A DNA stretch of 64,000 nucleotides from Candidatus Ligilactobacillus excrementigallinarum (lineage in GTDB: Bacteria; Bacillota; Bacilli; Lactobacillales; Lactobacillaceae). Positions 1,551 to 56,784 of this stretch are shown here, one piece after another. Made by a program: the position numbers and the translations under genes. Numbering within the stretch: the stretch's first letter is position 1; each line of letters starts with the position of its first letter. The stretch lies in contig DXFP01000007.1 of NCBI GenBank assembly GCA_019114385.1, positions 2,354-66,353 of the forward strand, written 5' to 3'. The notes under the pieces are model-generated. The model saw nothing but the letters and a program-made list of their open reading frames with translations. It ran no database searches and was not told where the DNA came from.

Positions 1551-1655
1551 AAAAGAGGTTGTGACATAAGTCCAACCTCATTTTCTATATCTGCATAATC
1601 GGCATGTCTGTATGTTCAAAGGTCTCCGATCAATACCACGTAATTCGCCATTTAC
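1551..1655 (-). repeat. Family-1 nested-hairpin repeat, copy A (sense to hdeD); left hairpin and part of the long stem missing
   Basis: Terminator-type hairpin GAGGTTGTGACATAAGTCCAACCTC, then TATCTGCATAATCGG and the core CCGATCAATACCACGTAATTCG. Alignable with the full copies at 14092 and 56619. Confidence 0.85.
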
Positions 1656-1661
1656 ATCTTT

Positions 1662-2183
1662 TTAAAACGCTTGAATAATCTTAACGACACCTATAAAGAA
1701 TAGGTAAAAAGCAACTAAGCCAACCAGTGTGTAAACAGAAAGCATTGGATTAAATAATAAGATAATCCCTAAAATTAACGTAATGATGTTTAATACAATC
1801 AATACATCAAAATAAGAACGGCTCATTGCCTTAAAAAAGTGATCTGCAAATAATTGCATAATGGAATCAAAAATAAACCAGAAAGCAAATAAATATGCTA
1901 AAACACCGATTCCAAAATTAATTTTCAATAAAAATAATAAACCCAAAATAATATCAACGACTGCAGAAATTAACAAAAAAGTATGTTTCATTCCTGTAAA
2001 ATCCTGCATTGTTTTTCGGAACCAAATTGTATAAATTCCCTTAGCTAATGCTCCGATTCCTACAAAAATAGAAATTAACGTCAACGTTTTTTCTGGAGCA
2101 TTGATGGCGGCAGCTCCCAAAACCACTAATAAGATTCCGATAATTAAGCTAAACCAATCAAATTTTCTCCTTGCATCTATCAT
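1662..2183 (-). CDS. HdeD/DUF308 family membrane protein
   Basis: 173 aa with six hydrophobic segments and a DUF308-like repeated GxxxG/ILLV pattern. RBS GAGAGG lies 9 nt upstream of the ATG. Confidence 0.7.
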   Translation of the reverse strand: MIDARRKFDWFSLIIGILLVVLGAAAINAPEKTLTLISIFVGIGALAKGIYTIWFRKTMQDFTGMKHTFLLISAVVDIILGLLFLLKINFGIGVLAYLFAFWFIFDSIMQLFADHFFKAMSRSYFDVLIVLNIITLILGIILLFNPMLSVYTLVGLVAFYLFFIGVVKIIQAF

Positions 2184-2240
2184 GATTTATAACCTCTCTT
2201 ATTTGAATATTCAACCAATCATATTTTAGCATGAATGACA

Positions 2241-2340
2241 AGGATGCGCAGAGCGTTATGCTAAGCGTGATGTAAGCTGCGGAATACGATCATTATGACT
2301 GCATACTTATTTATGCTTAGTTAGGGTTTCCAAAACAAAA
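2241..2340 (+). repeat. Family-2 repeat, copy b, followed by a short family-1 fragment (GGTTTCCAAAACAAAA)
   Basis: AGGATGCGCAGAGCGTTATGCTAAGCGTGATGTAAGCTGCGGAA matches the reverse complement of 14374-14417 and of 37690-37732. Confidence 0.8.
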
Positions 2341-2363
2341 AAGCCGCAGCGACATACTGCGAC
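2336..2363 (-). terminator. Probable intrinsic terminator of gpmA
   Basis: On the minus strand, a short GC stem CGCAG/CTGCG is followed by CTTTTTTG, 25 nt after the gpmA stop. Confidence 0.45.
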
Positions 2364-2387
2364 TTTCAATTAATGAATTATCTAATC

Positions 2388-3159: not shown

Positions 3160-4350
3160 TTATTCTTGATAATTTTTTACTGCGGCAATCAAATTTTGCA
3201 CTGCTTGCTGTACATTTTCTGGTGTAGTAGCCAAGTTTAATCGAATATGACCGGCTCCGCTTTCACCAAACCAGCTTCCAAAATCAACCGCAAGTTTGGC
3301 TTTATCTTGCACAACTTCTTCTAAATCCTCTTCAGGAACAAGAGCTGAAAAATCGATCCATGCCAAATATGTTCCTTCAAGCGGTGAAACGATAACTTCA
3401 GGTAACTCACATTTGAATGTATCCTTTAAATAGTGATAGTTAGCAGAAACTGTAGCCAATAAACCTTCAAGCCAATCTGCTCCGTCTTGATAAGCCGCTT
3501 GAGCTGCTGTCCGTCCCATTACACTGCCTGCCGGTGCTTTCGTTATTGCTGCATATTCATCATATCGTTTCATCAATTGCGGATTAGGAATAATCACATG
3601 ACTATTCAATAAACCAGCCATATTAAATGTTTTAGATGGAGCATCGAATACTACCAGATTGTCTCGATAATAGCCATCACGTACGCTTAAAGCTGAAGTA
3701 AATTTGCTTCCATCAATCATTAAATCATGATGAATTTCATCAGAAAAGACAATTACTTGCTCTTCACGGCAAAGTTCCAAAACAGCATTTAATTCTTCTT
3801 CACTCCATACTCTGCCGATTGGATTGTGCGGATTACAGAAAATTAAAACTTTAACTTGATTTGCTTCCATTTTTTGTCGCATATCATCCAAGTCAAGTTT
3901 GTAATGACCTTGCTTATTAATTAGATTTGAAACTACTAGTTTGCGTTTATTTTGCTCAATCACATCCATAAATGGTGAATAAACTGGTTGTAAAACCATT
4001 ACCGCATCATCTTTTTGAGTTAAGATTTGAATCATTGTACTTAGTGATTGAACAACTCCTGTTCCAAACCGCATCCATTCTTCGTGTAATTCAATTCCGT
4101 AGCGTTCTTTTTGCCAAGTAAAGTATGCTTGATAATATTCTTGATCTGGGAATGAATAACCAAATGCCCCATGCTTTACCCGTTTATTTAATGCATCTTG
4201 TGCAGCTTGCGGAATTTTAAATTCAGTGTCTGCAATCCACATTGGCAGCAAATCTGTGCGTCCATATTTAGCTTGCATCCCATCCCATTTTACAGAATCA
4301 GTATTTTCGCGATTAACTGCATATTTTGCTAAAAATTCATCTTTATTCAT
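3160..4350 (-). CDS. patB: PLP-dependent C-S lyase / aminotransferase (MalY/PatB family)
   Basis: Class I/II aminotransferase fold with an N-terminal DSVKWD motif and SKTFNMAG (PLP lysine). Start set to ATG 4350 (MNKDEF...), 6 nt after AAGGTG; the ORF-track GTG at 4359 lies inside that RBS. Confidence 0.8.
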   Translation of the reverse strand: MNKDEFLAKYAVNRENTDSVKWDGMQAKYGRTDLLPMWIADTEFKIPQAAQDALNKRVKHGAFGYSFPDQEYYQAYFTWQKERYGIELHEEWMRFGTGVVQSLSTMIQILTQKDDAVMVLQPVYSPFMDVIEQNKRKLVVSNLINKQGHYKLDLDDMRQKMEANQVKVLIFCNPHNPIGRVWSEEELNAVLELCREEQVIVFSDEIHHDLMIDGSKFTSALSVRDGYYRDNLVVFDAPSKTFNMAGLLNSHVIIPNPQLMKRYDEYAAITKAPAGSVMGRTAAQAAYQDGADWLEGLLATVSANYHYLKDTFKCELPEVIVSPLEGTYLAWIDFSALVPEEDLEEVVQDKAKLAVDFGSWFGESGAGHIRLNLATTPENVQQAVQNLIAAVKNYQE

Positions 4351-5410
4351 TGCTTTCACCTTTCTTGCTTCGCTGTGCCCGTTGATGCAGCTTCTGGTGT
4401 CTTCCGGGCAGCGGCTTAACTCCTAATACATCTAGGAAGAAAGTAAATATTGGAATTCCAACAATTAATCCCCATGTTCCAAAAAGACTTTCTGATACAA
4501 ATAATACTACAAAAGTGTAGAAAATTGGGAGCTCTGTTCGACTTGACATGAATTTAGGATTTAAAATATATGCCTCAATTGCATGAATAATCAATAACAT
4601 AATTAACACATAAATTACATCACGCAAACCGCCATCAGTATATGCTACAAATGACATTGGCACCGCTGAAATAATTACTCCAGCTACTGGAACTAAACTC
4701 AATACAAAAATCATTACTGCAAGACTAGCAATTTGAGGTACTCCGATAATCCCTAATCCAATGCATGTTAAAATCGTGTTCACAATTGCAATTAAGAATT
4801 GAGCTTCTAAGACAACCCCAAATGTATTGATAAAAATTTTTGCAAAGTAATAAATATCCTTAAAGAACCAAGAATAAGGGCCTTTCAGAAAGCTGCGCGA
4901 AAATTTAAATGTTGTTTCTTTTTCCACTGTAAAGAAGAAACTCAACAACAGTGACATTACAAAAGTAAAGCCCATTCTGCCAGCTTTTGAAACATATCCT
5001 AAAACAATTGTCATTCCACCTTGCAGTTGATGCAAAATATTTGAGTGTTTGACATAGTTATTAATATAATATGCCACCGTTCCCTTATCATTAGGTAAAT
5101 TATTGTAAAAATGAATCATTGATTTTACAAGACTTTCTGACTGAACCATTAACTTTGGTACATAAGTTGTTGCCGCCGCAATCATCAGAACAATCAATAT
5201 CAAATAAACTGCAACCACAATCACCGGTGACGGAATTTTGATTCGTTTTTGCACCCAATTAATTAGCCGAATAATCAGAAACGAAAAAATAAAAGTCAGT
5301 AAAATTATACTGATCATATCTTTAAATAAAAACAACGTGGCAATAATAATCATCAACACCACAAAGCGTCTCAAGCGTGTGTTTTCAAGAAATTTCTTCC
5401 ATAAATGCAT
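4343..5410 (-). CDS. AI-2E family transporter (PerM-like)
   Basis: 355 aa polytopic membrane protein with the AI-2E/PerM pattern. RBS AAAGGGA. Its 3' end overlaps the patB start by 8 nt. Confidence 0.8.
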   Translation of the reverse strand: MHLWKKFLENTRLRRFVVLMIIIATLFLFKDMISIILLTFIFSFLIIRLINWVQKRIKIPSPVIVVAVYLILIVLMIAAATTYVPKLMVQSESLVKSMIHFYNNLPNDKGTVAYYINNYVKHSNILHQLQGGMTIVLGYVSKAGRMGFTFVMSLLLSFFFTVEKETTFKFSRSFLKGPYSWFFKDIYYFAKIFINTFGVVLEAQFLIAIVNTILTCIGLGIIGVPQIASLAVMIFVLSLVPVAGVIISAVPMSFVAYTDGGLRDVIYVLIMLLIIHAIEAYILNPKFMSSRTELPIFYTFVVLFVSESLFGTWGLIVGIPIFTFFLDVLGVKPLPGRHQKLHQRAQRSKKGESNE

Positions 5411-5451
5411 AGCTTTCCCTTTCTACATTGTAAAGTTACTTTAATTATACA

Positions 5452-5504
5452 CAAAAAAGAGGTTGTGACATACGTCCAGCCTCTATTTCTATATTCGCAT
5501 AATC
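5452..5504 (-). repeat. Family-1 repeat, copy J (right-end module only)
   Basis: GAGGTTGTGACATACGTCCAGCCTC hairpin plus ATTTCTATATTCGCATAATC. On the minus strand it lies head-to-tail after family-2 copy j. Confidence 0.8.
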
Positions 5505-5649
5505 AAACTTCAGCTTAACCAGTTAAGTGTTGCTTCGTTGCTGTATAGTCAAGTTTCGTCCTAATTTGCTATGCATAAGCATGCATATCGCTATTCGGAA
5601 CGCACTGCAAAACTTACGCCACCAAGCTCGAAGTGGTCTTTACATCCTT
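5505..5649 (-). repeat. Family-2 repeat, copy j (sense to the HAD gene)
   Basis: On the minus strand, TAG A AGGATGTAAAGACCACTTCGAGCTTGGTGGCGTAAGTTTTGCAG... aligns with copy a. Confidence 0.8.
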
Positions 5650-6297
5650 CTACATATTCTTTAATTTTTCCGGTACATCAATCAAATAATCTGGATGTTC
5701 TTTTTTCAACATCTCAGCATCAAACGTGTCCCACAAACAACCGCACGTCTTTACATATGCTGCCTTTCCCATTTGGATATCATACTTCGCATCACCAATC
5801 ATTACTGTTTCATCCGGATCAAGTTGATAATGTTCTAATAGCATCAAAATTCCATCTGGAGCCGGTTTATAATTTTTCACTTGATCTGATCCAATACAAT
5901 CATCAAATAAATCTAAGATATTCAATTGTTTCAAATTTCTTTCTAAGGAAGTAGTATGCTTACTTGAAACCACAAAGAGATGCTTACCCTGCTTCTTCAA
6001 AGTTTGTAATGCATTCTCAATGCCATCATATAATTTAGTTGTTTGCATTTCGATTTCTGTATAATGTTTTCTAAAATTATCATACATCTCATTAAACTGT
6101 TTATCTGTGAAATGCTTTCCCTGTTTTTCAACTAATTCTGGAATATAGGTTTCAATTGGCACTCCCATATAATAGCGAACTGTCTTGGCTGAAGGTACCT
6201 CTAAATCAAAATCTCTGAAACAATCTTGGGTTGCTACTACTGCAGCATCTCCTGAATCAGCAAGTGTCCCATCAAAATCAAACAAATAATTTCTCAT
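5650..6297 (-). CDS. HAD-superfamily hydrolase (phosphoglycolate phosphatase-like)
   Basis: N-terminal DFDGTLADS (DxDxT nucleophile motif), a later SSK, and GDAKYDIQ (motif IV). Confidence 0.85.
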   Translation of the reverse strand: MRNYLFDFDGTLADSGDAAVVATQDCFRDFDLEVPSAKTVRYYMGVPIETYIPELVEKQGKHFTDKQFNEMYDNFRKHYTEIEMQTTKLYDGIENALQTLKKQGKHLFVVSSKHTTSLERNLKQLNILDLFDDCIGSDQVKNYKPAPDGILMLLEHYQLDPDETVMIGDAKYDIQMGKAAYVKTCGCLWDTFDAEMLKKEHPDYLIDVPEKLKNM

Positions 6298-9448: not shown

Positions 9449-9486
9449 AATTTTCAAAAAAGATAGTCTTTCCCTAATAAAAAAAT

Positions 9487-9554
9487 GCTCATAGTCCGAA
9501 AATTTACGGCATCGGGTAGAAACTTGCTAACCATATCATAGCGATTATATAAGC
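9487..9554 (-). promoter_or_regulatory. Purine riboswitch aptamer, guanine/xanthine type
   Basis: Minus strand GCUUAUAUAAUCGCUAUGAUAUGGUUAGCAAGUUUCUACCCGAUGCCGUAAAUUUUCGGACUAUGAGC matches the B. subtilis xpt aptamer almost position for position. The discriminator is C (GACUAUG), so it is guanine class. Confidence 0.92.
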
Positions 9555-9578
9555 TTTTATTTAATTAATATGTTAAGG

Positions 9579-9728: not shown

Positions 9729-10682
9729 ATGAAAACTTTCGATTATCAAGATGTTCAGTTAATTCCGAACAAATGCATTTTAAAAAGTCGAAAAGAAGCT
9801 GATCCGCAAATTAAATTTGGACCGTTAACTTTTAAAATCCCCGTTGTTCCCGCTAACATGGCAAGTGTAATTGATGAAAATCTTGCCGCATGGTTAGCAG
9901 ACAACGGGTACTTTTATGTCATGCATCGTTTTAATCCTGAAGCTCGGTTTGATTTTGTGCGTAAAATGCATGAAAGTCATCGTTTCGCTTCAATTTCTAT
10001 CGGAATCAAAGATCAAGAATATCAATTAATCGATCAGTTAAAAGCAGCTGGACTTGAACCCGAATATATCACTGTTGACGTTGCTCATGGCCATTCAATT
10101 TATGCCATGAAGATGGTTGAATACCTTAAAAAACAATTACCAAATTCGTTTGTAATTGTCGGCAATATCGCTACTCCGCAAGCTGTCATTGATTTAGAAA
10201 ATGCTGGTGCAGATGCTACTAAAGTTGGGATTGGACCCGGTAAAGCCTGCATCACTAAATTGAAAACGGGATTTGGAACTGCTGGATGGCAGTTGTCAGC
10301 AATTCAGCAATGCAGTGCAGTAGCACGCAAACCAATCGTCGCTGATGGCGGTGTTCGTCATAATGGTGATATTGCTAAATCAATTCGATTTGGAGCTTCA
10401 ATGGTAATGATCGGCTCCTTATTCGCCGGACATCTGGAAAGTCCTGGAGAAATCGTTACCATTGATGACCAAAAATATAAAAAGTATTGGGGGTCAGCAT
10501 CCGCAATCCAAAAGCAAGATGTTCACAACGTTGAAGGTAAACAATTGCTCGTTCCGTATCGCGGTAAAATCGCTGATACGCTGCAAGAAATGGAAGAAGA
10601 TTTGCAGTCCGCTATTTCGTATGCTGGAGGCAAAGATTTGAGTGCGTTGCGTGGAGTAGAATATGTGATCACTAGAAGGTAA
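9729..10682 (+). CDS. guaC: GMP reductase
   Basis: IMPDH/GMPR TIM-barrel without a CBS insert, 317 aa, with the catalytic-loop region [20 protein letters not shown]. Confidence 0.85.
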
Positions 10683-10693: not shown

Positions 10694-10825
10694 TGTAAGG
10701 AAAGAACGCACGAATTACGCAAGATTGGTTCGGAGAATTTTGAACTTACAGACATGCCTGTTTGTTTTAAAACCCGATTATGTAGATATAAAAATTGAGG
10801 TTGGACTTATGTCACAACCTCTTTT
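10694..10825 (+). repeat. Family-1 repeat, copy B (sense to guaC; left hairpin missing)
   Basis: Core ACGCACGAATTACGCAAGATTGGTTCGGAG, then ACAGACATGCCTGTTTGTTTTAAAACCCGATTATGTAGATATAAAAAT, then hairpin GAGGTTGGACTTATGTCACAACCTC and a T-run. Confidence 0.9.
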
Positions 10826-14075: not shown

Positions 14076-14091
14076 TTAATTAAAAATAAAA

Positions 14092-14257
14092 GAAGGTGTG
14101 ACAAAACACCTTAAACAGGCATGTTGCAAGGAAAAAACGAACGAATTACGTAGGATTGATTCGGAGTTTTTTTGAATTTACAAACATGCCTGTTTGTTTT
14201 GGAAACCGATTATGCGGATATAAAAATAGAGGTTGGACTTATATCACAACCTCTTTT
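14092..14257 (+). repeat. Family-1 repeat, copy C (full length, sense to galE)
   Basis: GAAGGTGTGACAAAACACCTT; long stem AAACAGGCATGTT...AACATGCCTGTTT; core ACGAACGAATTACGTAGGATTGATTCGGAG; right hairpin AGAGGTTGGACTTATATCACAACCTCT plus a T-run. Confidence 0.92.
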
Positions 14258-14261
14258 GATT

Positions 14262-14437
14262 TATGGAAAACTATTTGATTGCATTACTGCTTAAAAGTTG
14301 AGCTTCGAGCTACCAAGCTAAATGTAAGTCCGAAACACTCCGAATTTTGGCTCCGCCATTCGTTCGTGTTCCTCAGCTTACATCACGCTTGGCTTAACGC
14401 TCTTCACATCCTAGTAGTTGAGTTCCGGCCTAACTTG
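14262..14437 (-). repeat. Family-2 repeat, copy c (full length, sense to cls); fused tail-to-tail with copy C
   Basis: Minus strand AGGATGTGAAGAGCGTTAAGCCAAGCGTGATGTAAGCTGAGGAACACGAACGAATGGCGGAGCCAAAATTCGGAG...GGACTTACATTTAGCTTGG...AACTTTTAAGCAGTAATGCAATCAAATAGTTTTCC. Confidence 0.88.
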
Positions 14438-15895
14438 CTATAAAGTAGGTGACAACAATCTTGAGAAATATTGCTTAAACTTCCGCCAACGCGACTGCTT
14501 TTCAAAATATTCTGGCGTCAACAATGTACATTTTTCCAAATCCTTCTCATAGATTTCCTTCAACTGTTGCGTCAAATCAGCATCATAACAAAATGCATTA
14601 CATTCAAAGTTCAATTTGAAACTTCTAAAATCTAAGTTAGCTGAACCTACCGAAGAAATCGTATCATCCGTAATCATCGTCTTCGCATGCAAAAATCCAT
14701 TATCATACCGGTAAACCTTAACCCCATTGTTTACTAAGTACTTGGCATAATATTCCGTTGCTCGATAAACAAATGGATGATCAGGTTTGCATGGAATCAT
14801 AATACGTACATCTACTCCAGACAATGCCGCAATTACCAACGATTCAATGACCGAATCATCTGGAATCAAGTATGGCGTTTGAATGTATAAGTAATCTTGG
14901 GCTGTTGAAATAATTTTTTGATAGCCCCGCTTGATTGATTGCCGCTCGCTATCCGGACCAGATGAAACGATTTGCATCTTCGTCTTTCCATGTCCTTCAA
15001 AGACTGGAAAATATTTCTTTTCAAATTCAAAGCGTTTCTTCGTTGTCCGCCGACAAGTTGTATTCCAATCCATCATAAACCGCGCCTGCATTTGAATAAC
15101 TGCCATGCCGTATACCCGCATGTGTGTATCACGCCAGTAACCATATTTTTCAAGTCGACCCAAATATTGATCACCAATATTAAATCCGCCAATATATCCG
15201 GTCTTGCCATCAATAATTACTAACTTACGGTGATCATGATAGTTTAATCGCGGAGTTGTGATAATTTGTTTTTCAGAACTTGAAATGAAACCTTGTGCTT
15301 CGCCGCCAAGTTCTTCTAACTTCTTGAAAAATTTATAATTTGTTCCGCTTGATCCCCACATATCATAAAGTACCCGCACTTCTACGCCGCGCGCAGCCGC
15401 ATTTTCTAATGCATGTAATACTTCATGACCAATGTCATCTGCGTAGAATGTATAAAATTCCACATGAATACTTTCTTGTGCACTTTTAATGTCTGCTAAC
15501 AAAGAATCAAAGAAATCTTGCCCGTCAGTAAATAATTTCGTTTGATTATTTGTAGTTAAATATGCACCTTCAGATTCTAAAAATAGATGCTCCAGTTCGC
15601 GTTCCTGCTGCGTACTGTGCTTATCCAAATCCCTCTTTTGCCACATTTCTTTTTGACGTTTAGTTAATGAATTGATAACTTTTTCCTGTTCTTTCTGGAT
15701 GGTAAAAATTTTGTCGTGCGAAATTTTACGTCCAACAAACAAGTATAAAATGAAACCGAAAATTGGAATAAAGACCAATACCAGTAACCATGCCCAAGTA
15801 GTTGAAATGTCGCGTTTTTCATGAAATACCGTAATAATTGCGGCTAATAAGTTCAATAGCCAAACAATAAGTACAATAAACCCAAACGTTTGCAA
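14438..15895 (-). CDS. cls: Cardiolipin synthase
   Basis: Two HKD motifs (HDHRKLVIIDG and HAKTMITDD) and two N-terminal TM helices. TTG start lies 6 nt after AAAGGAGAGG. Confidence 0.92.
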   Translation of the reverse strand: MQTFGFIVLIVWLLNLLAAIITVFHEKRDISTTWAWLLVLVFIPIFGFILYLFVGRKISHDKIFTIQKEQEKVINSLTKRQKEMWQKRDLDKHSTQQERELEHLFLESEGAYLTTNNQTKLFTDGQDFFDSLLADIKSAQESIHVEFYTFYADDIGHEVLHALENAAARGVEVRVLYDMWGSSGTNYKFFKKLEELGGEAQGFISSSEKQIITTPRLNYHDHRKLVIIDGKTGYIGGFNIGDQYLGRLEKYGYWRDTHMRVYGMAVIQMQARFMMDWNTTCRRTTKKRFEFEKKYFPVFEGHGKTKMQIVSSGPDSERQSIKRGYQKIISTAQDYLYIQTPYLIPDDSVIESLVIAALSGVDVRIMIPCKPDHPFVYRATEYYAKYLVNNGVKVYRYDNGFLHAKTMITDDTISSVGSANLDFRSFKLNFECNAFCYDADLTQQLKEIYEKDLEKCTLLTPEYFEKQSRWRKFKQYFSRLLSPTL

Positions 15896-18320: not shown

Positions 18321-20525
18321 TTAATGACGATTTAAAGCCTTAAAATGATATTTCTTTGAAGCGTAATCATGGTGATAAAGCGGATTGAAGAACCCCATAT
18401 ACATCAATTCATCACCGCCGTAAATTTTTTTCGTTTCTAAATCTTGATACTGTTTATTCGGATCCAAGTTCACCAGTTTAGTAATTGTGGATAATGGTTG
18501 TGCACTGCTCATAGTTTGGAAAGTATCCACAACCACTTCATTTTGGTCCGGTGAAACAAACATCCAAGCACAGCCGTTATCCTCAAATGGACTAGTCAAT
18601 CGGTAAAAGTCACCAAATTGAATTAAATGCCGCACACTTTTGTACCATTCAACTTGCTTTTTGACTTCAGCCTGTTCTTCTGCACTCATTTGAGTCAAAT
18701 CTAATTCATACCCAAAAATCGCACTCATTGCACAAGTTGCTCGTGTTTCCAGTGAAGTAATTCGACCAGTTTGTTGATTAGGTGCCACTGATACATGGGC
18801 AGTCATTACTGATGGCGGATATACCAATGAGGTTGCGTATTGAATCCGTTGACGTGCAACTGCATCCGTATTATCACTAGTCCATGTTTGTGGCATGTAG
18901 TACGTAATTCCCATATCGAAGCGACCGCCGCCGCCTGAACAACCTTCAAAAAGAATATCTGGGAAATCAGCAGTTAATTTTTCTAACATTGCATATAAGC
19001 CTAATACATAGCGGTGATATACTTCACCTTGTTGATCAGCCGGCAGGGCTTGTGAATAAATATCTGACAAATGCCGATTCATATCCCATTTGACATAATC
19101 AACCGCATTTTCACGCAAAACCTTTTCAACTTGATTAATGATATTTTCGCGGACATCTTCACGAGTCAAATCTAACAAATATTCATTTCGTGATGGCGAT
19201 GGTGCTCGATTAGGAACTTGCATCAAATAGTCTGGATGTTCCCGATATAAATCAGAATCAAAGGAAATCATTTCAGGTTCAAACCATAAACCGAATTTCA
19301 ATCCTTGATCATGCACATAATCTACGAAGTGTCGTAATCCATCTGGAAACTTCCGCTTATCAACATACCAATCACCCAAGGATGAATTATCATCATCACG
19401 GTGACCAAACCAGCCGTCATCCAAAACAAACATTTCAATGCCTAATTTTTTCGCGTCATCCACAATTGGCTTCAACTGATCTTCAGTAAAGTCCATGAAA
19501 GTTGCTTCCCAGTTGTTAACTAAAATTGGCCGGTCCATGTTTTGGAAACGACTGCGGACAATTCGCTCTTTAATTAAGTGATGGAATGTTTGACTCATGC
19601 CATTTAATCCAGTTGGTGAATATACCATAACTGCTTCTGGAGTTTGAAATGTTTCATGTGCCTTTAATTTCCAACTGAAATTGTAATCATTAATTCCTGC
19701 AACGACTCTGGTTTGTTGAATTGGATCGCGTTCAACTTCAAATTTGAAATTGCCAGAATAGATCAAACTAAACCCATATACATCGCCTTGGTCTTCAGTG
19801 GCATCGGGAGACGTTAAAGCGATAAAGTTGTTCATTTGGTGACTAGTTGATCCCCGCCGGCTTTCAAAACTGCGTAAACCGCGATTCAACCGTGAACGTT
19901 CCATTTGTCGTTCAGAAGCATGTGCTCCAGGTAAATTAATTACATCGAATTTTTGATTTGGAAAATCAATTTGCATTGAAGCAATCTTTTTCAAAAAGAC
20001 TTCATTATCACTTTGATTTTCAACTTTGACTGAACGGGTAACTAATGCTCGATCTTCGTAGATAGTGTACAGCAAGTCTAATTTCATTTGAGTAACTTCA
20101 TCTCTCAAAGTTACAATCAATGTTTGGGCTTCACTGTCATTTTCAGTAAATGCACTTGGAAGTCCGTCTAACATTGGTTTTCCAGCTTGAATTTCATATG
20201 AATCAAACTGGAAGCGACTGCTATATGAACCATCTGCCTGACGTACAATCACTGCAGGTGTCCGATAGTCATCAATTCCGCTTGAGCTATATTCCTGCAA
20301 CAATGTGTCAGGTGAAAATGTCCGATCTAACGAACCAGGTAAGTTACCAGAAAAGCCGCGATCCGCACGTTGATATTTCATTAAGCCGTGATATTGCTTT
20401 ACTCGTTTACCAAAGTACAAGTGGCTTAATAATCCGCCTTCTTCTACTTGGAAAATATACGAAATCAAGTCATTATGCAAATGGAATGTCTTTGTGTTCT
20501 CGTCAAATTCAACTAAATTAGTCAT
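18321..20525 (-). CDS. melA: Alpha-galactosidase (GH36)
   Basis: 734 aa with DYVKWDMNR and FEGCSGGGGRFD GH36 catalytic motifs. RBS GAAAGGGGA. Confidence 0.92.
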   Translation of the reverse strand: MTNLVEFDENTKTFHLHNDLISYIFQVEEGGLLSHLYFGKRVKQYHGLMKYQRADRGFSGNLPGSLDRTFSPDTLLQEYSSSGIDDYRTPAVIVRQADGSYSSRFQFDSYEIQAGKPMLDGLPSAFTENDSEAQTLIVTLRDEVTQMKLDLLYTIYEDRALVTRSVKVENQSDNEVFLKKIASMQIDFPNQKFDVINLPGAHASERQMERSRLNRGLRSFESRRGSTSHQMNNFIALTSPDATEDQGDVYGFSLIYSGNFKFEVERDPIQQTRVVAGINDYNFSWKLKAHETFQTPEAVMVYSPTGLNGMSQTFHHLIKERIVRSRFQNMDRPILVNNWEATFMDFTEDQLKPIVDDAKKLGIEMFVLDDGWFGHRDDDNSSLGDWYVDKRKFPDGLRHFVDYVHDQGLKFGLWFEPEMISFDSDLYREHPDYLMQVPNRAPSPSRNEYLLDLTREDVRENIINQVEKVLRENAVDYVKWDMNRHLSDIYSQALPADQQGEVYHRYVLGLYAMLEKLTADFPDILFEGCSGGGGRFDMGITYYMPQTWTSDNTDAVARQRIQYATSLVYPPSVMTAHVSVAPNQQTGRITSLETRATCAMSAIFGYELDLTQMSAEEQAEVKKQVEWYKSVRHLIQFGDFYRLTSPFEDNGCAWMFVSPDQNEVVVDTFQTMSSAQPLSTITKLVNLDPNKQYQDLETKKIYGGDELMYMGFFNPLYHHDYASKKYHFKALNRH

Positions 20526-35401: not shown

Positions 35402-35404
35402 ACC

Positions 35405-35447: not shown

Positions 35448-35499
35448 TTTAAGTATATAACAAAACGATTCTCGAATTCAAAGTGCTATATTTGCAAAT

Positions 35500-39290: not shown

Positions 39291-39453
39291 TAGGAATTGT
39301 GACATAAGTCCAGCCTCTATTCTTATATCCGCACAATCAGGTTCCAAAACAAACAGGCATGTCTGTAAATTCAAAAGCCTCCGAATTAATCCTACGTAAT
39401 TCGTTCGTTTTTTCCTTACAACATGCCTGTTTAGGGTGTTTTGTCACACCTTC
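39291..39453 (-). repeat. Family-1 repeat, copy G (full length, sense to pduO)
   Basis: The reverse complement carries GAAGGTGTGACAAAACACCCTAAACAGGCATGTTG...ACGAACGAATTACGTAGGATTAATTCGGAGG...ACAGACATGCCTGTTTGTTTTGGAACCTGATTGTGCGGATATAAGAATAGAGGCTGGACTTATGTCACAATTCC. Confidence 0.9.
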
Positions 39454-43451: not shown

Positions 43452-46100
43452 TTGAAAACAAGATTTTATCAGATGACTGATCAAGCGGTCCTGAAGCAAC
43501 TAGATTCTTCTGCTGATGGACTTACTTCTTCACAAGTACAAGAGCGCCAACAAAAATTCGCCAAAAATGTACTTGCTGCCAAAAAGCACACAACATTGCT
43601 TCAAAAATTCGTCGCGCAATTCAAAGACATGATGATTATTATTTTGATTGCTGCAGCTCTAGTTGCGATGCTTGCTGGTGAAGTTTCCGATGCACTAATC
43701 ATTTTCTTAGTAGTCTTGCTGAACGCCATTTTTGGAGTTTTCCAAGAAGCCAAAGCAGAAAATGCAATCGATGCCTTACAAGAAATGACCACTCCAACTA
43801 CACGAGTTCGTCGAAACGGAGTTGTTACTCAAATCAAGAGCGAAGAACTCGTACCTGGAGACATTGTGTTATTAGAAGCCGGAGACATTGTGCCAGCTGA
43901 TGTTCGTTTACTTTCTGCAAATAACCTTAAAATTGAAGAAGCAGCATTAACCGGCGAGTCTGTTCCAGTTGAAAAGAATACTGCAGTGATGACGAAAGAG
44001 CAGCCGCCATTAGGTGAGCAACATAACTTAGGTTTCATGAATACTAATGTAACTTATGGAACTGCTGAAGCTGTAGTTATCCGCACTGGAATGCAGACCG
44101 AAGTGGGCCACATTGCTTCAATGCTTAATGATGTTGAAAAAGCAATGACTCCACTGCAAAAGAACATTACTCATTTAAGTAAAGTTTTAAGTATTTTAAT
44201 TTTGTTAATTGCCATTGTAATTTTTATTTTTGGAACAGTGACTGGACGTGAATCAGTGCTAGACATGCTATTAACTGCGATTTCACTTGCTGTTGCGGCT
44301 ATTCCGGAAGGATTGCCAGCAATTGTAACCATTACTTTAGCATTAGGAACACAGTCAATGGCTAAACGCCAGGCATTGGTACGCAAATTACCTGCTGTTG
44401 AAACTTTAGGCTCAACCGAAATTATTGCTTCTGATAAAACCGGAACATTAACTCAAAATAAGATGACAGTGGAACAGTTTTATGAAAATGGAAAATTAAC
44501 GAATGCTGACAACTACCAAACAACCATTAACGATCACTTACCACAAATTATGATTCTGGCAAACGATAGCCAAAAAACACCAGATGGTCTTGTAGGTGAT
44601 CCAACTGAAACTGCCTTGATTCAATACTATTTAGATCATAATTTCCCGGTAAATAAAATCGAAAATGAGTTTATTCGAGTAGGTTCAATTCCATTTGAAT
44701 CAGAAAGAAAATTAATGTCTGTGATTGTTCGTGATCAAAATCAACAATTATCAGTCATGACAAAAGGTGCCGTTGATGAACTTTTACGCCGAACAACTCA
44801 AATTTTAGATAATGGCAAAGTTCGCAAAATTAATGAAAATGACCGGAAACAAATTCTTAAAATCAATCATGATTTAGCGCAAGATGCCTTACGGGTTTTA
44901 GGATACGCATATCGGCCATTGACAAATCCAGATGCGGAATTTACTTCTGAAAATTATGAACATGACTTGATTTTTGTCGGGTTAACCGGAATGATTGATC
45001 CGCAACGACCAGAAGTAAAAAATGCGGTAAAAGAAGCCAAGGAAGCTGGTATTCGTCCATTAATGATTACTGGAGATCATAAAGATACTGCCCGTGCAAT
45101 CGCTATTCGTTTGGGAATTATTAGTCCAGACAATTATAATGGAGTAATTACCGGACATGAACTTGATCAAATGTCAGATAAAGAGTTACGCAAAAAGATT
45201 ACTCAATATTCTGTCTTCGCCCGCGTTGCGCCTGAACATAAAGTGCGCATCGTGAAAGCTTGGCAATCACATGGCAAAGTCGTAGCGATGACTGGTGACG
45301 GTGTCAATGATGCTCCAGCATTAAAAACCGCCGATATTGGAGTTGGAATGGGCATTACCGGGACAGAAGTTTCTAAAAATGCCTCCGATATTGTTTTAGC
45401 CGACGATAACTTTGCAACCATCATTGTCGCAGTTAAAGAAGGCCGGAAAGTCTTTGCTAACATTCAAAAAGCAATTCAATATCTGCTTTCTGCAAACTTA
45501 GGCGAAGTCTTAACTTTATCAATGATGACGTTCCTAAACTGGACAATTTTTGCCCCCGTTCAGATTTTATGGATCAACTTAGTAACTGATACTTTTCCAG
45601 CAATTGCATTGGGAATTGAAAAAAGTGAAAAAGGCATCATGAAGCAAAAGCCGCGCGGAAATCGTTCTAATTTTCTTTCAAACGGTGTAGGTGCAAGTAT
45701 TATCTATCAAGGATTGCTTGAAGGTTTAATTACCTTAGGTGTTTACTGGTATGCATTACATTTTCCATTCCACCATAACAGCGCTGCAATCCACGCCGAC
45801 GCCTTAACGATGGCATATGCAACTTTAGGCTTATTGCAGCTATTCCATGCTTTTAACTGTAAATCATTGCATGGTTCGATTTTTAACAAACAGATTTTCA
45901 ATAACAAATTTTTTAATTTATCAATCTTAGCTTCTGCCCTCTTGCTAGGTGCCACAATCTTTATTCCTGGATTTAACAAAACATTCCACGTTACTCAATT
46001 AGCATTTCAACAATGGTTAATCGTTATTCTAGCAGGCGTGCTATTGATTTCAATCGTTGAAATTGTAAAATTTGTGATTCGCAAAAAAAATCAAGCTTAG
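43452..46100 (+). CDS. P-type Ca2+-transporting ATPase (PMCA/SERCA-like, P2A)
   Basis: DKTGTLT phosphorylation site, [17 protein letters not shown], and 10 TM segments. TTG start lies 12 nt after AAGGAGG; an ATG at 43473 is the alternative. Confidence 0.9.
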
Positions 46101-46111: not shown

Positions 46112-46281
46112 AGGAAAGTGTGACACAACACCAACAAACAGGCATGTTGTAAGGAAAAGCTGAACGAATTATGTAGTATTGATTCGGAGTTTTTCAACTT
46201 ACAGTCATGCCTGTTTGTTTTTGAACATGATTATACAGATATAAAAATAGAGGCTGGACTTATGTCACAGCCTCATTTTTT
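46112..46281 (+). repeat. Family-1 repeat, copy H (full length, sense to the ATPase gene)
   Basis: GGAAAGTGTGACACAACACC...AAACAGGCATGTTG...GAACGAATTATGTAGTATTGATTCGGAG...ACAGTCATGCCTGTTTG...GATTATACAGATATAAAAATAGAGGCTGGACTTATGTCACAGCCTC plus a T-run. Confidence 0.9.
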
Positions 46282-48111: not shown

Positions 48112-51100
48112 TTATTGTTGCTTGCGATAAACAATCATTCCGACTATTCCCACTAAAACAATTCCAGCAATTACTGCTAAAACTCCTTCAGCTTGGTCGC
48201 CAGTTTGCGGTAAGACACCTTGGCTCTTACCTTTTCCAGTTCCATTTTCACTGTTACCATTTTGCTTTCCTATACTTGTATCAGCATTGCTACTTGCACC
48301 TTGAGCAGAACTGCTGCTTGATTGTACCGGTGTTGCAACTGGAGCAAGCGGAGCAGTTGATGTTTCATTACTACTTGAAATTACATTCACACTTGAACTT
48401 GATGATTCAACTGGTGCAGGTACAAGTAATTGACTTGAAGTACTTGAACTCATTACTGGCGTAGGAATTGAAGCAGCTGTACTTGAGCTTGAATTCATTA
48501 CTGGTGTTGAAATTAAAGCGGCTGTACTTGAGCTTGAATTCATTACTGGTACTGACGTCTTTGAACTTGAGCTTGATACTGGAGTCAAAGTTTGTGAACT
48601 TGAACTGCTTTGCACTACCGGAACAATTATACTGTTGCTTGAAGATGCAGTAATACTACTTGAACTACTATTAATCAAACTTGATGAGCTTGATTTGCTG
48701 CTCGAACTGCTGCTTACCAAACTTGATGAGCTTGATTTACTGCTCGAACTGCTGCTTACCAAACTTGATAAGCTTGATTTGCTGTTTGAACTGCTGCTTA
48801 CCAAACTTGATAAGCTTGATTTGCTGCTTGAGCTACTAATTACCAAACTTGATGAGCTTGATTTACTGCTTGACAAACTTGATGAACTTGATTTACTGCT
48901 TGAACTTGATGATTGATTCTTTTCATCAACTAACTCATTATTGCTTGGTAAGTTTGAAGTTGCTTTACCATTCTTCAATGTTACTTGGTAAGTCTTAGTT
49001 AATTTTTCATAACCGCTTGGCGCATTCGTTTCGGTTAATGTGTAAGTTCCATCTGGAATATTTGTAAATGAAACTTTACCAGTGCTATCTGAAGTTGCTT
49101 TTTGTTCAAAACCATTGCCGCTCAAATTAAAGGTTGCACCTGCAAGCCCCTTCTTGGTATCACTTGCAATCTTAGTAAAACTGAAGTTACCTTTATATGC
49201 TTCATCTGTCCAAACTTTGGCATAAGTACTATTGTTCATTCCTAACATCGTTACTTTGCCGTTTTGGACATCCACTGATCCGGCACCTAAAGTATCAACC
49301 TTGTATCCATCTGGTGCCATGATTTCAACTAAAATGTATTGACCATTTGGCACGTTATTAAAGGTTACTGTTCCATCTGCATTTGAAGTTGCAGTTGCTA
49401 CAACTGTTCCTTCACTTGTCTGTGGATCATAAATTAAACTTTGTAATTGGAAAACGGCTCCTTGCAAACCTTTAGTATTATTAGCATTTGCTTTCTTAAA
49501 ACTGAAACTAGCTTCTGTTTGGTCAACCACAGTATAGTTGCCATTGCTGCCTTTTAAATCAGAGCTTGAAACTGTTCCGTCATTATTTACAGTTAAGTTA
49601 TATACCGTACCATCTGTTTGGTATCCAGTTGGTGCTTGGGTTTCTTGAACTGTATAGTTTCCAGGCTCCAAATTATCAAATACGGCATCACCATTTGTAT
49701 CTGTTGTCACATTACTTTGCAATCCGGTTTTACTGTTTGTCAAAGTAAATGTTGCTCCAGATAACGCTTTGCCGCTTGAGTTCGTCTTTTTAATCGTTGC
49801 CTTACCAACCGTCTTTTTATCTGTAATTTGCATAATCTTATTAGTTACAGTTTGGCCATCGTAAGTAATCTTTGGTTCGCCATTTTGAATCGTCACTGAA
49901 ATTGTTCCGTTGATCTTTTCATAACCAGTTGGTGCTTGAGTTTCACTAATTGTATAGGTTTTACCATTTGTTAATCCTGTGAAGGTAATCTTTCCATCTG
50001 CATCTGAAGTTGCATTTTCAGTCTTACCATTTCCTGTTAATTCAAATGTTGCACCTTGCAAATTATTACCTTGATCATCGACCTTTTGCAAAACAACCCC
50101 ATTCTTTGGAATTATTCCACTGATTCCGCCTGAAATTGACGTATTTGACACTGTCTTTGAAGTTTGGACAGACTTCTTTGAACCATCCGTTGTATTATAT
50201 GTCATTTTCGCACTATTTGATAATGATGGAATTGAGTGATCAGAAACCATTCCACGATAATCAATTTCCCATGCTGAACCATCTAACAAATCAGCATCAA
50301 ACGTAAATGTTACGGTTTGCGGAGTTGAAGAACTGACATCAATTGAGCCATTCAATTCGCTTTGGAATTGTTTATAGTTCAATACGGTTACGTTGCCGTA
50401 TTGGTCCTTAATTCGAAAAGCAAAAGTATTTTGATTAAATGTTTGGCCTTTACTTAAGTTATCTACGATTGAAATTTCACCAGTCCCATTGGGTGTAACT
50501 CCTGAAATTTGCCAGTTAACATTTCCACCAGTTCCCATGTAGCCGCTCTTTGTAAATTTCTGATTATTTACATCTACAGATGGCTTTACGGGAGCTCCGC
50601 CTGTTCCTTGACCTGTACCATGGTTAGAATTAATCGAAACCTTTGGCGGAGTAATGTTTGGTACACCCCAGTGTGTATTCACTGTGTGCGTAATTGTATT
50701 TCCATTCGTTGTCGATGTAGTTCCATTAGTTGTGGCATGTGCTTGGACAGTAAATGTAAACCATCCTTTAACGTCTTGCAAAGTTTGACCATCGATTCCG
50801 TTATTAAATATAATCTTTGCTTCGCCATTTGAAACATACACCGTTCCTAATGCTTGACCTTCATTGTTCATCAGTGTTTTCGTTGCAGTATAACCGACCA
50901 AAGCAGGCGGAAGCTTAATTTCAATATAATCTCCCGGTTGAATTTGATCTTCCTTCTTTTCGCTGAATGTTACTGTAATCTGTAAATTTTGCCCATTTGA
51001 TACTGTATTTTTATTTACAGAAATATTATCAATAATTGCAGGGTTTGCATCCGTCAGATTTTGGCCACCAGCCGCTTTGGCCATTTCAGGTCTCAAAATC

Positions 51101-51180
51101 AATAAGCTGAACCCCCCCACAATTAACAGCAGCATCCCTATAAACACTTTTTTAAATTTTGATGCTTGTTTATCTGTCAT
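48112..51180 (-). CDS. LPXTG-anchored adhesin: MSCRAMM-like N-terminal region, four Cna-B/SpaA-type repeats, ~270-aa serine-rich stalk
   Basis: Start ATG 51180 (MTDKQASKFKK...) lies 8 nt after GAGGAG; the ORF-track start at 51249 has no RBS. Signal peptide present. Repeats of the form GATFxL...DGKxTF...GxYxxxETxAPxGY. C-terminal LPQTGD plus a hydrophobic helix plus YRKQQ. Confidence 0.9.
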   Translation of the reverse strand: MTDKQASKFKKVFIGMLLLIVGGFSLLILRPEMAKAAGGQNLTDANPAIIDNISVNKNTVSNGQNLQITVTFSEKKEDQIQPGDYIEIKLPPALVGYTATKTLMNNEGQALGTVYVSNGEAKIIFNNGIDGQTLQDVKGWFTFTVQAHATTNGTTSTTNGNTITHTVNTHWGVPNITPPKVSINSNHGTGQGTGGAPVKPSVDVNNQKFTKSGYMGTGGNVNWQISGVTPNGTGEISIVDNLSKGQTFNQNTFAFRIKDQYGNVTVLNYKQFQSELNGSIDVSSSTPQTVTFTFDADLLDGSAWEIDYRGMVSDHSIPSLSNSAKMTYNTTDGSKKSVQTSKTVSNTSISGGISGIIPKNGVVLQKVDDQGNNLQGATFELTGNGKTENATSDADGKITFTGLTNGKTYTISETQAPTGYEKINGTISVTIQNGEPKITYDGQTVTNKIMQITDKKTVGKATIKKTNSSGKALSGATFTLTNSKTGLQSNVTTDTNGDAVFDNLEPGNYTVQETQAPTGYQTDGTVYNLTVNNDGTVSSSDLKGSNGNYTVVDQTEASFSFKKANANNTKGLQGAVFQLQSLIYDPQTSEGTVVATATSNADGTVTFNNVPNGQYILVEIMAPDGYKVDTLGAGSVDVQNGKVTMLGMNNSTYAKVWTDEAYKGNFSFTKIASDTKKGLAGATFNLSGNGFEQKATSDSTGKVSFTNIPDGTYTLTETNAPSGYEKLTKTYQVTLKNGKATSNLPSNNELVDEKNQSSSSSSKSSSSSLSSSKSSSSSLVISSSSSKSSLSSLVSSSSNSKSSLSSLVSSSSSSKSSSSSLVSSSSSSKSSSSSLINSSSSSITASSSNSIIVPVVQSSSSSQTLTPVSSSSSKTSVPVMNSSSSTAALISTPVMNSSSSTAASIPTPVMSSSTSSQLLVPAPVESSSSSVNVISSSNETSTAPLAPVATPVQSSSSSAQGASSNADTSIGKQNGNSENGTGKGKSQGVLPQTGDQAEGVLAVIAGIVLVGIVGMIVYRKQQ
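48677..48915. repeat. 42-bp tandem repeat (about 5.5 units) inside the adhesin gene
   Basis: The unit AAACTTGATGAGCTTGATTTGCTGCTCGAACTGCTGCTTACC repeats at 48677, 48719, 48761 and 48803, then partially at 48845 and 48875. It encodes LVSSSSSSKSSSSS-type units. Confidence 0.9.
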
Positions 51181-51352
51181 TTGTATTTCACTCCTCAGTA
51201 ACGCTTTTGAAAGCAAGCTTAAAATATCACTATCTGAGTATATCATCATTCGTTATTTATCGGATAATAATTACGACACATTTCTTAATTTTCAACATAT
51301 TCGCTAATTATTCTTAACCATTTTAAAAAAGTGAATAGACTTTTTAGAATAT

Positions 51353-54873: not shown

Positions 54874-55100
54874 CCCAATAACGTTTAATTTAAAAGAGAT
54901 TCATCGCATTGTCATAATTTATTAACTGCGAGAATCCCACTTTGTTTTTATTTTCTTATTGTAACATATATTGAGAGGTAACTCTGCATTTAACTAAGAG
55001 CTAATAAAAATTTTAACTAAAAAATTGCTGGAAATCATTGAACGTTATGTTAAAATTTAATTAGATAAGGATTAAATCCTAATGAAAGAAGGAATTATAC

Positions 55101-56420
55101 ATGACAGATAAGGATATTACTTTTAAAGATTTAACAGCCTTTGACGAAGATTTACAAAACACACCAGCATCAGCTGCATTAGGCCGTGCCGTTCAAGCTA
55201 ACGGGGTTATCAAAACTAGCCACAACTATGCTGCCAAGCGTGATTTAAGCCGTGTCTTTTCCATTGAATTAGAAACTGGCAGTGTTACGGCCCAAAAGAA
55301 AAGCGGTCGTTGCTGGTTATTCGCAACTTTAAATACTTTACGGCATGAATTTGCTGATAAATACCATGTTAAAGATTTTCAATTTTCACAAAACTACAAT
55401 TCATTCTTTGACCGTTTAGAAAAAGCAAACCACTACTTAGAAGAAATCATCCGCTTAGCTGATCGTCCTGCTGATGATCGTGAATTGCTCGAAGTCTTGA
55501 ACTGGAATGATAACGATGGCGGTCAATGGGCTAACGCCGCTGCATTAATTAACAAATATGGTGTAGTTCCTCAAAGTGTCATGCCTGAAACTTTCACTAG
55601 TGATCAAACTGATGACTTGAACTCATCACTGAATCTGAAGTTAAGCAAAGCAGCTATGACTTTGCGTGAAATGAAAGTCAACGGTGAAGATGACAGTGAG
55701 TTGCGCGATTACAAGAAACATGTTTTAAGCGATATTTACCGCATGCTAGTTTATGCATTTGGTCAACCACCAGTAAAATTTGATTTTGAATATCGCGACG
55801 ATGATCACAACTACCACATCGACAAAGATTTAACTCCAAAAACATTCTATGAAAAGTATGTTGTGCGCGACTTCAATGATTATGTTTGTTTATTAGATGC
55901 CCCAGATCACGAAATGGGTAAGAAATTTGGTTTACCAAGTCAAGACTATATTTATGATGAAAAGCACATTGAATTTTTAAATGTTGGTACGCAAGCATTG
56001 AAGGATGCGGTCATCGCTTCATTAAAAGCTGGTGAAACAGTTTGGTTTGGCTGTGATGTATTGCAAGATATGGATCGTCAAAAAGGCTACTTAGCACCTG
56101 AATTCTTCAAACAAGGCGAATTATTCAACACTGATTTGCAACTCAGCAAAAAAGAACGTTTGGCTTCTCGCAATGGTGAAGTTTCACATGCCATGACTTT
56201 CACTGGGGTTGACTTAGTTGATGGCAAACCAACTAAATGGAAAGTTGAAAACTCATGGGGCGATAAAGTTGGTGACAAAGGCTATTTCATTATGACTGAT
56301 GAATGGTTCGATAAGTATGTTTATGAAGTAATTGTTAATAAAAAGTATATTGACGAAACAGCTCGTAAAATCGATCAACAAACTAAGACTGATTTGCCTG
56401 CATGGGATAGTTTAAGATAG
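55101..56420 (+). CDS. pepC: Aminopeptidase C (bleomycin-hydrolase-type C1 cysteine peptidase)
   Basis: Active-site QKKSGRCWLFA, a later SHAMTFTG (His) and ENSWG (Asn). 439 aa. Confidence 0.93.
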   Translation: MTDKDITFKDLTAFDEDLQNTPASAALGRAVQANGVIKTSHNYAAKRDLSRVFSIELETGSVTAQKKSGRCWLFATLNTLRHEFADKYHVKDFQFSQNYNSFFDRLEKANHYLEEIIRLADRPADDRELLEVLNWNDNDGGQWANAAALINKYGVVPQSVMPETFTSDQTDDLNSSLNLKLSKAAMTLREMKVNGEDDSELRDYKKHVLSDIYRMLVYAFGQPPVKFDFEYRDDDHNYHIDKDLTPKTFYEKYVVRDFNDYVCLLDAPDHEMGKKFGLPSQDYIYDEKHIEFLNVGTQALKDAVIASLKAGETVWFGCDVLQDMDRQKGYLAPEFFKQGELFNTDLQLSKKERLASRNGEVSHAMTFTGVDLVDGKPTKWKVENSWGDKVGDKGYFIMTDEWFDKYVYEVIVNKKYIDETARKIDQQTKTDLPAWDSLR

Positions 56421-56461
56421 AAAATTAGAAGATGTTTTCCTGATACTGATAGAGAGATATA

Positions 56462-56506
56462 CACCCCAAATCTTGAACAAAAAATCTAAGATTTGAGGTG
56501 TTTTTT
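56462..56506 (+). terminator. Intrinsic terminator of pepC
   Basis: CACCCCAAATCTT-gaacaaaaaatct-AAGATTTGAGGTG followed by TTTTTT. Confidence 0.85.
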
Positions 56507-56618
56507 AATATCCAAGAATCTTAATAGGCGTAATGCACTATTAAGTTTCACGTGTTTTTGACTTGAAATTTTTCCGTCTCTATCACGCATAATTAATAAT
56601 ATCTGGTTCTCGGTGATA

Positions 56619-56784
56619 AAGGGTGTGACAAAACACCTTAAACAGGCATGTTGCAAGGAAAAAACCAAACGAATTACATAGTATTGATTCGAAGGTTTTT
56701 GAATTTACAGACATGCCTGTTTGTTTCGGAACCCGATTATACGGATATAGAAATAGAGGCTGTACTTATGTCACAACCTCTTTG
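56619..56784 (+). repeat. Family-1 repeat, copy I (full length; lies after pepC's own terminator)
   Basis: AAGGGTGTGACAAAACACCTTAAACAGGCATGTTG...AACGAATTACATAGTATTGATTCGAAGG...ACAGACATGCCTGTTTGTTTCGGAACCCGATTATACGGATATAGAAATAGAGGCTGTACTTATGTCACAACCTCT. Confidence 0.92.

Follow-up and report, generated by a model that had tools for sequence, protein, structure and literature searches.

The repeat and its copies in the window

The window, as we call the whole 64,000-nucleotide (nt) stretch analysed here (contig DXFP01000007.1 of Candidatus Ligilactobacillus excrementigallinarum, positions 2,354 to 66,353), holds ten copies of a non-coding repeat, 53-170 bp long. We think it probable that this repeat is a transposable element of the miniature inverted-repeat type (MITE) that has the termini of an IS1182-family insertion sequence (IS) of Ligilactobacillus, a family with DDE transposases, and that inserts into and replaces terminator hairpins. 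An earlier note on this DNA, made from the sequence and its open reading frames (ORFs), had located the copies and offered two readings, a structured 3' untranslated region (3' UTR) and an element mobilised by a Y1 transposase.

BLASTN with positions 14086-14265 as query and the window as subject retrieved all ten copies where the earlier note had placed them. A degenerate pattern for the 41-nt 3' module, GATTNTNNNNANANANNAANNGAGNNTGNACNTATNTCNCA, matched the window exactly ten times and 100 shuffles not once. Its matches lie at 1560-1600, 5464-5504, 33764-33804 and 39298-39338 on the minus strand and at 10776-10816, 14208-14248, 24676-24716, 31317-31357, 46229-46269 and 56735-56775 on the plus strand; this strand use, six plus and four minus, has no evident bias.

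Copy 4 (14092-14257, plus strand), our reference copy, is full length and lies between convergent genes, 16 nt past a galE-like stop codon. It is made up of a left end, GAAGGTGTGACAAAACACCTT, a long hairpin (14113-14195), a linker and a right hairpin (14229-14255). The alignment of the ten copies agrees with the five-part layout given before (left hairpin, long outer stem, inner CGAAT/ATTCG core, linker, and right hairpin with T-run), partial and internally deleted copies included. The element is modular, since different window copies miss different parts.

Also full length are copy 8 (39291-39453, minus), which is 9 nt past the stop of 39463-39996(-), in sense orientation between co-directional genes; copy 9 (46112-46281, plus), 11 nt past the stop of the P-type ATPase gene 43452-46100(+) and convergent; and copy 10 (56619-56784, plus), 198 nt past the stop of the pepC-like gene 55101-56420(+) and likewise convergent. 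Copy 7 (33755-33906, minus), the most diverged among the full copies, occupies the entire spacer between the stops of 33907-34677(-) and 33363-33752(+). The left terminal repeat, that is the left hairpin, is missing from copy 3 (10694-10825, plus), which stands in sense orientation between co-directional genes 11 nt past the stop of 9729-10682(+), an IMPDH/GMP-reductase family gene, and from copy 5 (24582-24724, plus), in a convergent spacer 15 nt past the pepX stop. Both ends are kept and the internal core is deleted in copy 6 (31249-31375, plus; 11 nt past the stop of 29429-31237(+), convergent). Copy 1 (1551-1655, minus; 6 nt past the stop of ORF 1662-2183(-), convergent) has its 5' part truncated or deleted and keeps a core remnant and the 3' module; a full copy follows the homologous gene in a contig of the L. 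aviarius group (L049:13939-14114). Copy 2 (5452-5504, minus) is the 3' module alone (spacer, right hairpin and T-run), between co-directional genes, 145 nt past the stop of 5650-6297(-) and 42 nt ahead of the start of 4343-5410(-), and it is conserved in other strains.

The ORFs inside the copies have just 10-22 codons and are not conserved, on which ground a small-ORF or toxin reading of the element was dropped. The gaps between the upstream stop codon and copies 2 and 10 contain no convincing small ORF.

Several copies are followed directly on their 3' side by a second, looser repeat family (window 1380-1550, 2238-2289, 5566-5648 and 14258-14440; L006:11190-11484), and GAAAAACTATTYGATTGCATTACTGCTTAAAAGTTG is common to two of its members. 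The galE-cls spacer of other strains has an additional 119-nt tandem unit that ends in CACATCCTAGTAGTTGAGTTCCGGCCTAACTTGCTAT.

Position and orientation relative to genes

Eight of the ten window copies begin at most 17 nt from the upstream stop codon, one fewer than the earlier note had counted, copies 2 and 10 being the exceptions. Window spacers are occupied in seven of eight cases between convergent genes, in three of 37 between co-directional genes and in none of seven between divergent genes (Fisher p = 6.8e-6). The same ranking is found in the L. aviarius group, where 29 of 67 convergent, 25 of 300 co-directional and one of 65 divergent spacers are occupied (Fisher p = 1.9e-12). At these loci the distance between a stop codon and one end of the element is typically 2-10 nt. 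Often this is so at both ends, in which case the element takes up the entire spacer between two convergent stops. These statistics, with the fold described below, bear out the view that this is a structured interspersed repeat of gene 3' ends.

Each of the ten window copies is in sense orientation to the gene whose end lies on its 5' side. Such an arrangement, like the short distance to the stop codon, would suit a structured 3' UTR or terminator module selected by the host, in which the long hairpin would stabilise the mRNA or be a site of processing or of protein binding and would be kept as beneficial to the upstream gene. The seven window copies between convergent genes are uninformative on a sense rule because either orientation is sense to one neighbour. 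Only the three co-directional copies test it, and all three obey, an outcome with p = 0.125 by chance. The rule, which the earlier note had given as invariable, holds for the window and fails for the family: the L. aviarius-group sites with both neighbours known are 20 convergent, nine co-directional sense, 11 co-directional antisense and one divergent, so that 11 of 20 co-directional copies in this sister lineage are antisense to the upstream gene. The robust regularity is therefore one of position (the terminator place beside a stop codon, with convergent enrichment) and not of orientation. The upstream genes are also unrelated in function, which again speaks against a module kept for their benefit.

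Fold and terminator features

The element has a highly stable predicted fold on the sense strand (-55.4 kcal/mol, z = -6.8), and RNAalifold folds its 5' ~125 nt into a single long, irregular hairpin that pairs GGTGTGACAAAAC with GTTTTGGAACCC. The share of paired cells is 95% for the named structure and 34-49% for slid controls, and thirteen pairs have changed on both sides. The outer stem differs between the two species in a compensatory way (CAGGC/GCCTG in place of CGAGC/GCTCG). Pairing in the right hairpin is preserved through compensatory changes in seven of its 11 pairs; the 5' domain is mostly invariant, far less variable between paralogues than the right hairpin. All of these are properties that a host-selected RNA module might have. 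Against such a module, the antisense strand folds equally well (-48.2 kcal/mol, z = -7.7), and no sense-strand-specific pairing was found in the stems, where G.T and A.C mismatches number 39 and 42; being equally common, they give no pointer to a sense RNA.

The right hairpin has a predicted free energy (dG) of -9 to -20 kcal/mol in nine of the ten copies and of -5.7 in copy 8, where it is degraded. It is followed by 5-8 T within the next 10 nt and, on the reverse strand, by TATTTTTAT. By its sequence it takes the form of an intrinsic terminator, as had been proposed, and it may well act as one. A simple terminator scanner overlooks it, seeing a short stem with a loop over the scanner's 8-nt limit. 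In the window species the left hairpin with CTTTTATTTT is terminator-like on the opposite (minus) strand.

Distribution across strains and species

The window species is a Ligilactobacillus of the L. aviarius group; its pepX product has 78% identity to the L. cholophilus protein and 75-77% to clusters that carry the name L. aviarius. (The pepX ORF, window 22050-24566(+), is called with 838 aa or 805 aa depending on the assembly, and the longest version probably over-extends the N-terminus by 33 codons.) Contigs of other strains of the species, taken from ENA and Logan, cover six of the ten window copies in full length and two more only at contig ends, and every covered copy is retained at its site. 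Short-read contigs end within the repeat, and assemblies made from short reads for these chicken-gut lactobacilli are broken up by the family.

In L. cholophilus the syntenic 22 kb are free of the element. One diverged copy is present in an L. aviarius contig, directly after a gntR stop codon, and the features common to this copy and those of the window were used to build a pattern of core and linker for metagenome searches. The pattern gave 73 hits, mostly full length, at 59 metagenome loci of the L. aviarius group. The metagenome contigs of this group represent at least 56 distinct sites, and the sites occupied in the window species and in L. aviarius mostly differ.

BLASTN searches of plasmid and phage collections with the element were negative. 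The 24-position degenerate 3'-module pattern, which L. aviarius copies escape through a 1-nt indel, matched nothing in JGI metagenomes and viral contigs. A collection of 185,579 species genomes, from which the window species is apparently absent, contained no match to that pattern or to a strict right-hairpin pattern. No Rfam family matches the element at its gathering threshold, and the best sub-threshold scores are at most 25 bits against thresholds of 40-229. Nothing relevant to this family was found in the literature on L. aviarius repeats. Judged by Rfam and the literature, the family appears to be uncatalogued; it is of a known kind and does not make a new class of system.

Element ends and the IS1182-family insertion sequence

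A sequence that starts with AAAAGAGGTTGTGACATAAGTCAC and runs into a transposase gene is present in, or forms the end of, four L. aviarius-group loci. The left ends of this IS (L085, L081, L044 and L049) and its intact right end (L031), read inward, are all AAAAGAGGTTGTGACATAAGT; a second right end (L084) is a degraded version of the same repeat, and it is from these two fragments that the IS right end is known. The right end of our element, read inward, is AAAAGAGGTTGTGACATAAGT as well, identical at 21 of 21 positions to the IS left end and to the intact IS right end, with the consensus AAAAGAGG(T/C)TGTGA(C/T)ATAAGTC. Its left end, AAAAGAAGGTGTGACAAAAC, is a diverged copy of the IS repeat (~16 of 21 positions, about 76%). 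The IS1182-family terminal repeat can also be written AAAAGAGGYTGTGACATAAGT. The right hairpin of the element corresponds to the IS right end, in which the same inverted arm occurs slightly further in.

Two protein fragments of the IS, P0177 and P0178, match the NCBIfam model for IS1182 family transposases, NF033551 (E = 4e-11 and 2.5e-22); as they are fragments, the matches fall under the full-length cut-off. They also carry Pfam PF05598. A DDE transposase with the IS1182 signature is thus found beside the inverted repeat that the IS and the short element share. The IS copies themselves start 2-14 nt past stop codons. The nearest intact relative (563 aa, 51% identical) is on the L. murinus plasmid NZ_AP025729.1, where it is annotated as an IS1182 family transposase (WP_286295545.1); its left end, AAAAGAGGCTGTGACATAAGTC, has the same repeat, and it lies ~40 nt from the 3' end of dltB. 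The best matches to P0178 from Staphylococcus and Mammaliicoccus are 36-47% identical.

The short element is non-coding and below 300 bp, has terminal inverted repeats that match those of an IS, and exists in many dispersed copies with presence/absence differences, which are the marks of a MITE. That its ends are IS inverted repeats, and that it belongs to no Rfam family, also counts against a 3' UTR module of the host.

The ends decide as well on the second reading of the earlier note, an element of the REP/REPIN or PATE type, moved as single-stranded DNA by a Y1 (HUH) transposase (IS200/IS605 or RAYT) that recognises terminal hairpins. The note was right that the two ends are imperfect inverted repeats and that the window has no transposase. 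In the window species both ends are same-strand hairpins whose 5' arms, AAGGTGTGAC and GAGGTTGGAC, resemble each other, and the lack of a target duplication (see below), the extragenic location and the compensatory stem changes, as in REPINs, would fit Y1 mobilisation too. The termini, however, are identical to the inverted repeats of a DDE element of the IS1182 family, and the L. aviarius left end is conserved in sequence and forms no local hairpin. No Y1_Tnp Pfam match was seen among the annotated genes of the contigs examined, unannotated metagenome loci not being scanned for Y1, and the window strand use is unbiased. We regard a Y1 mobiliser as very improbable.

At L066:13102-13296 an IS1182-family left end directly abuts the first arm of a MITE right hairpin, at which point the contig data stop; this is either an IS inserted into a MITE hairpin or a composite that hints at how the MITE arose. 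An IS30-family element (HTH_38 and rve domains; end GGTAGATTGCAATAAATAAC) is inserted in two copies of the IS1182-family IS, at L084:5230-6366 and L085:4455-4592.

Filled and empty sites

The strain comparison of orthologous spacers, which the earlier note had recommended, yielded one clean filled/empty pair, with the element in L039 and without it in L003 and L049; the window copies, where covered, gave no further pair, being fixed within the species. What stands between the two stop codons of the empty allele is a canonical bidirectional terminator, CAAAAATGGAATCGGAAAAAATCCGATTCCATTTTTG. In the filled allele the element stands in the terminator's place, the flanks are identical and there is no duplication; short A- and T-runs are common to the junctions. 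This single pair gives moderate support for insertion into hairpin or terminator DNA with loss of the target and no duplication. Copy 5, downstream of pepX in the window, has plain terminators as its counterparts in L. aviarius and L. cholophilus. No consistent target-site duplication was detected over the family: flanking direct repeats occur at 12 of 61 copies, compared with 10.1 +/- 2.5 in shuffled pairings.

At three orthologous sites (L035/L048, L033/L054 and L037/L052) the element is 69-86% identical between strains and the flanks are 91-97% identical. The variants differ in length and sequence, with a short form of 147-158 nt on one side and a long form of 169-171 nt on the other; the long form has an additional ~12 nt (e.g. 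AGCTTCGCGTCA) within the long hairpin. Sub-variants that differ at orthologous sites point to re-insertion or gene conversion and not to conservation in place.

This is the opposite of what purifying selection in place would give, and it tells, as does the terminator at the empty site, against a structured 3' UTR as the primary function. Together with the lack of sense-strand asymmetry, these findings suit a mobile element landing on terminators better than an RNA module under selection where it stands, and we consider it decidedly unlikely that host selection for such a module accounts for the repeat. The 3' UTR and terminator character would be a consequence of insertion and not its cause, and leaves the distribution unexplained.

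Solo hairpins formed from the terminal repeat of the IS or MITE (GAGGTTGTGAC-loop-GTCACAACCTC, or two left-type arms) occur in isolation at terminator-like positions (L081:1828-1855, L065:10740-10775, L036:4180-4215 and L033:11226-11270). They may be minimal derivatives or footprints.

A MITE that replaces terminators

We suggest that the transposase of the partner IS, acting in trans, would recognise the left end AAAAGAAGGTGTGACAAAAC and the right end AAAAGAGGTTGTGACATAAGT of the MITE. Insertion would be like that of IS1272, into hairpin-forming DNA, which in practice would mean the intrinsic terminator just past a stop codon; the target hairpin would be wholly or partly deleted and no target duplication made. 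The right end of the element, a GC-rich palindrome flanked by a T-run and, on its other side, by a T-rich stretch, could then serve as replacement terminator, and the left end in the window species, by adding a hairpin and a T-run on the opposite strand, might make termination bidirectional. Insertions at terminators would be nearly harmless because the element brings a substitute. They would accumulate there, hairpin-free places and promoter regions being neither targeted nor tolerated. A MITE of this kind would be expected to abut stop codons, nearly saturate convergent spacers, leave divergent spacers empty, occur in both orientations and lack flanking duplications. Landing on terminator hairpins would explain the position of the element without a new RNA function.

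Several observations do not sit easily with this model. Only one filled/empty pair is clean, and no outgroup polarises it, so that gain of the element and its replacement by a terminator are not told apart. One copy among the 61, L067:10724-10898, does have a flanking direct repeat, of 15 nt (ATTGATTAAAATAAA), which covers the upstream stop codon. The window copies covered by other strains are all fixed and no ongoing transposition was seen. The IS copies found in L. aviarius contigs are all damaged, by truncation, a frameshift or an interrupting IS30-type element, and an intact cognate transposase was found neither in the window nor in the contigs searched of the window species and L. aviarius. 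Lastly, nothing in the IS sequence at hand corresponds to the ~125-nt internal domain, and copies differ far less in this domain than in the right hairpin.

With the covered window copies all fixed and the L. aviarius IS copies all degenerate, the family is probably quiescent now. Fixation and degenerate IS copies would also be expected of an old, immobile repeat that was spread and homogenised by recombination (gene conversion, or allelic replacement through flanking homology), its likeness to IS ends being a relic. Gene conversion could produce the sub-variants at orthologous sites, and the short A- and T-runs common to filled and empty junctions would suit such exchange. Recombination alone, however, cannot put copies at dozens of unrelated terminator positions, the copies of the two species are mostly at different sites, and the positional pattern is the same as that documented for target choice by an IS1182-family transposase. 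We judge this account unlikely as a substitute for terminator replacement by a MITE; it supplements that explanation for the present-day state.

The internal domain is a separate matter, since its uniformity and the lack of an IS counterpart mean that a plain deletion-derivative model fails to explain it. Its stems are near-invariant across two species-level lineages, with few compensatory changes. The ~125-nt long hairpin could conceivably be a domesticated module, an RNA 3'-end element or a DNA- or protein-binding site and not mere cargo, though we hold this to be a tentative idea with little probability. Were it true, the MITE would have spread the module to most operon ends and in effect standardised the termination and finishing of transcripts in the lineage.

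Terminator replacement by a MITE would give a mechanistic reason for small repeats just past genes, with terminator hairpins as the targets of the parent transposase family and a spare terminator within the element. Transcript 3' ends, 3' UTR lengths and convergent read-through, at seven of eight convergent spacers in the window, are then probably set by a selfish element. The family also offers dozens of natural target sites for the study of hairpin choice by IS1182-type transposases.

Other features of the window

In the window, just two Rfam families exceed their gathering score, a purine riboswitch (9472-9572(-), 73.5 bits) and a preQ1 riboswitch (35404-35448(-), 43.6 bits). Tandem repeats of 42 and 45 nt at 48443-48903 lie within ORF 48112-51249(-), which encodes a large surface protein with SpaA and SdrD_B domains whose length varies from 994 to 1106 aa between strains. 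A GH36 alpha-galactosidase gene (18321-20525(-)) is situated between genes for a phosphotransferase system EIIC component and a Na/H exchanger; it is not at the syntenic place in L. aviarius (L003) or L. cholophilus (L002).

Comparison with known systems

REP, BIME and REPIN sequences with their RAYT partners are likewise extragenic palindromes after genes or between convergent genes, with compensatory stems and proposed roles in mRNA 3'-end stability. They differ in having units of 20-40 nt, a conserved 5' tetranucleotide and a Y1 partner, whereas the ends of our MITE are inverted repeats of a DDE-type IS. RUP with IS630-Spn1, Correia elements and MIC231 with IS231 are closer in kind: non-coding, below 300 bp, with IS-matching terminal inverted repeats, many intergenic copies, a tight predicted fold and effects on neighbouring transcripts. 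Those elements make fixed duplications (e.g. TA) and are not confined to terminators; the MITE described here makes none and sits at the terminator place.

The nearest named repeat by behaviour, compared by description only, is the pneumococcal SPRITE, which is terminator-like, lies near gene 3' ends with convergent enrichment, and has AAAA/TTTT ends and no visible target duplication (PMC3049150). Both are small, AT-rich and lineage-restricted, with a terminator-like hairpin and T-run; both are close to gene 3' ends and enriched between convergent genes, end in AAAA/TTTT without detectable duplication and turn over slowly. SPRITE has no known partner IS, numbers ~30 copies per genome and consists of one 18-bp duplex, while the MITE has a 125-nt long hairpin upstream, IS1182-type ends and a documented terminator-replacement allele.

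By mechanism the nearest systems are IS1272 and TnSha1 of Staphylococcus, whose transposases belong to the same family as that of the partner IS (NF033551). These IS1182-family elements always integrate into hairpins, several of which are terminators confirmed by RNA-seq; they insert in either orientation, delete part of the target and make no target duplication (PMC4923244). They are 1.9-3 kb long, coding and present in few copies; the MITE is 150-170 bp, non-coding, present at 10 per 64 kb and equipped with a terminator-like hairpin of its own, and the transposases are only distantly related (the 36-47% identity to P0178 given above). Common to them and the MITE are the location at terminator hairpins after genes, loss of the target, absence of duplication and use of both orientations, so that targeting by the partner transposase may be of the same sort. 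TnSha1 is furthermore moved through a diverged extra left inverted repeat with 69% identity, by which a passenger is mobilised (PMC4923244), to which the left end of the MITE, ~76% identical to the IS repeat, would be a counterpart.

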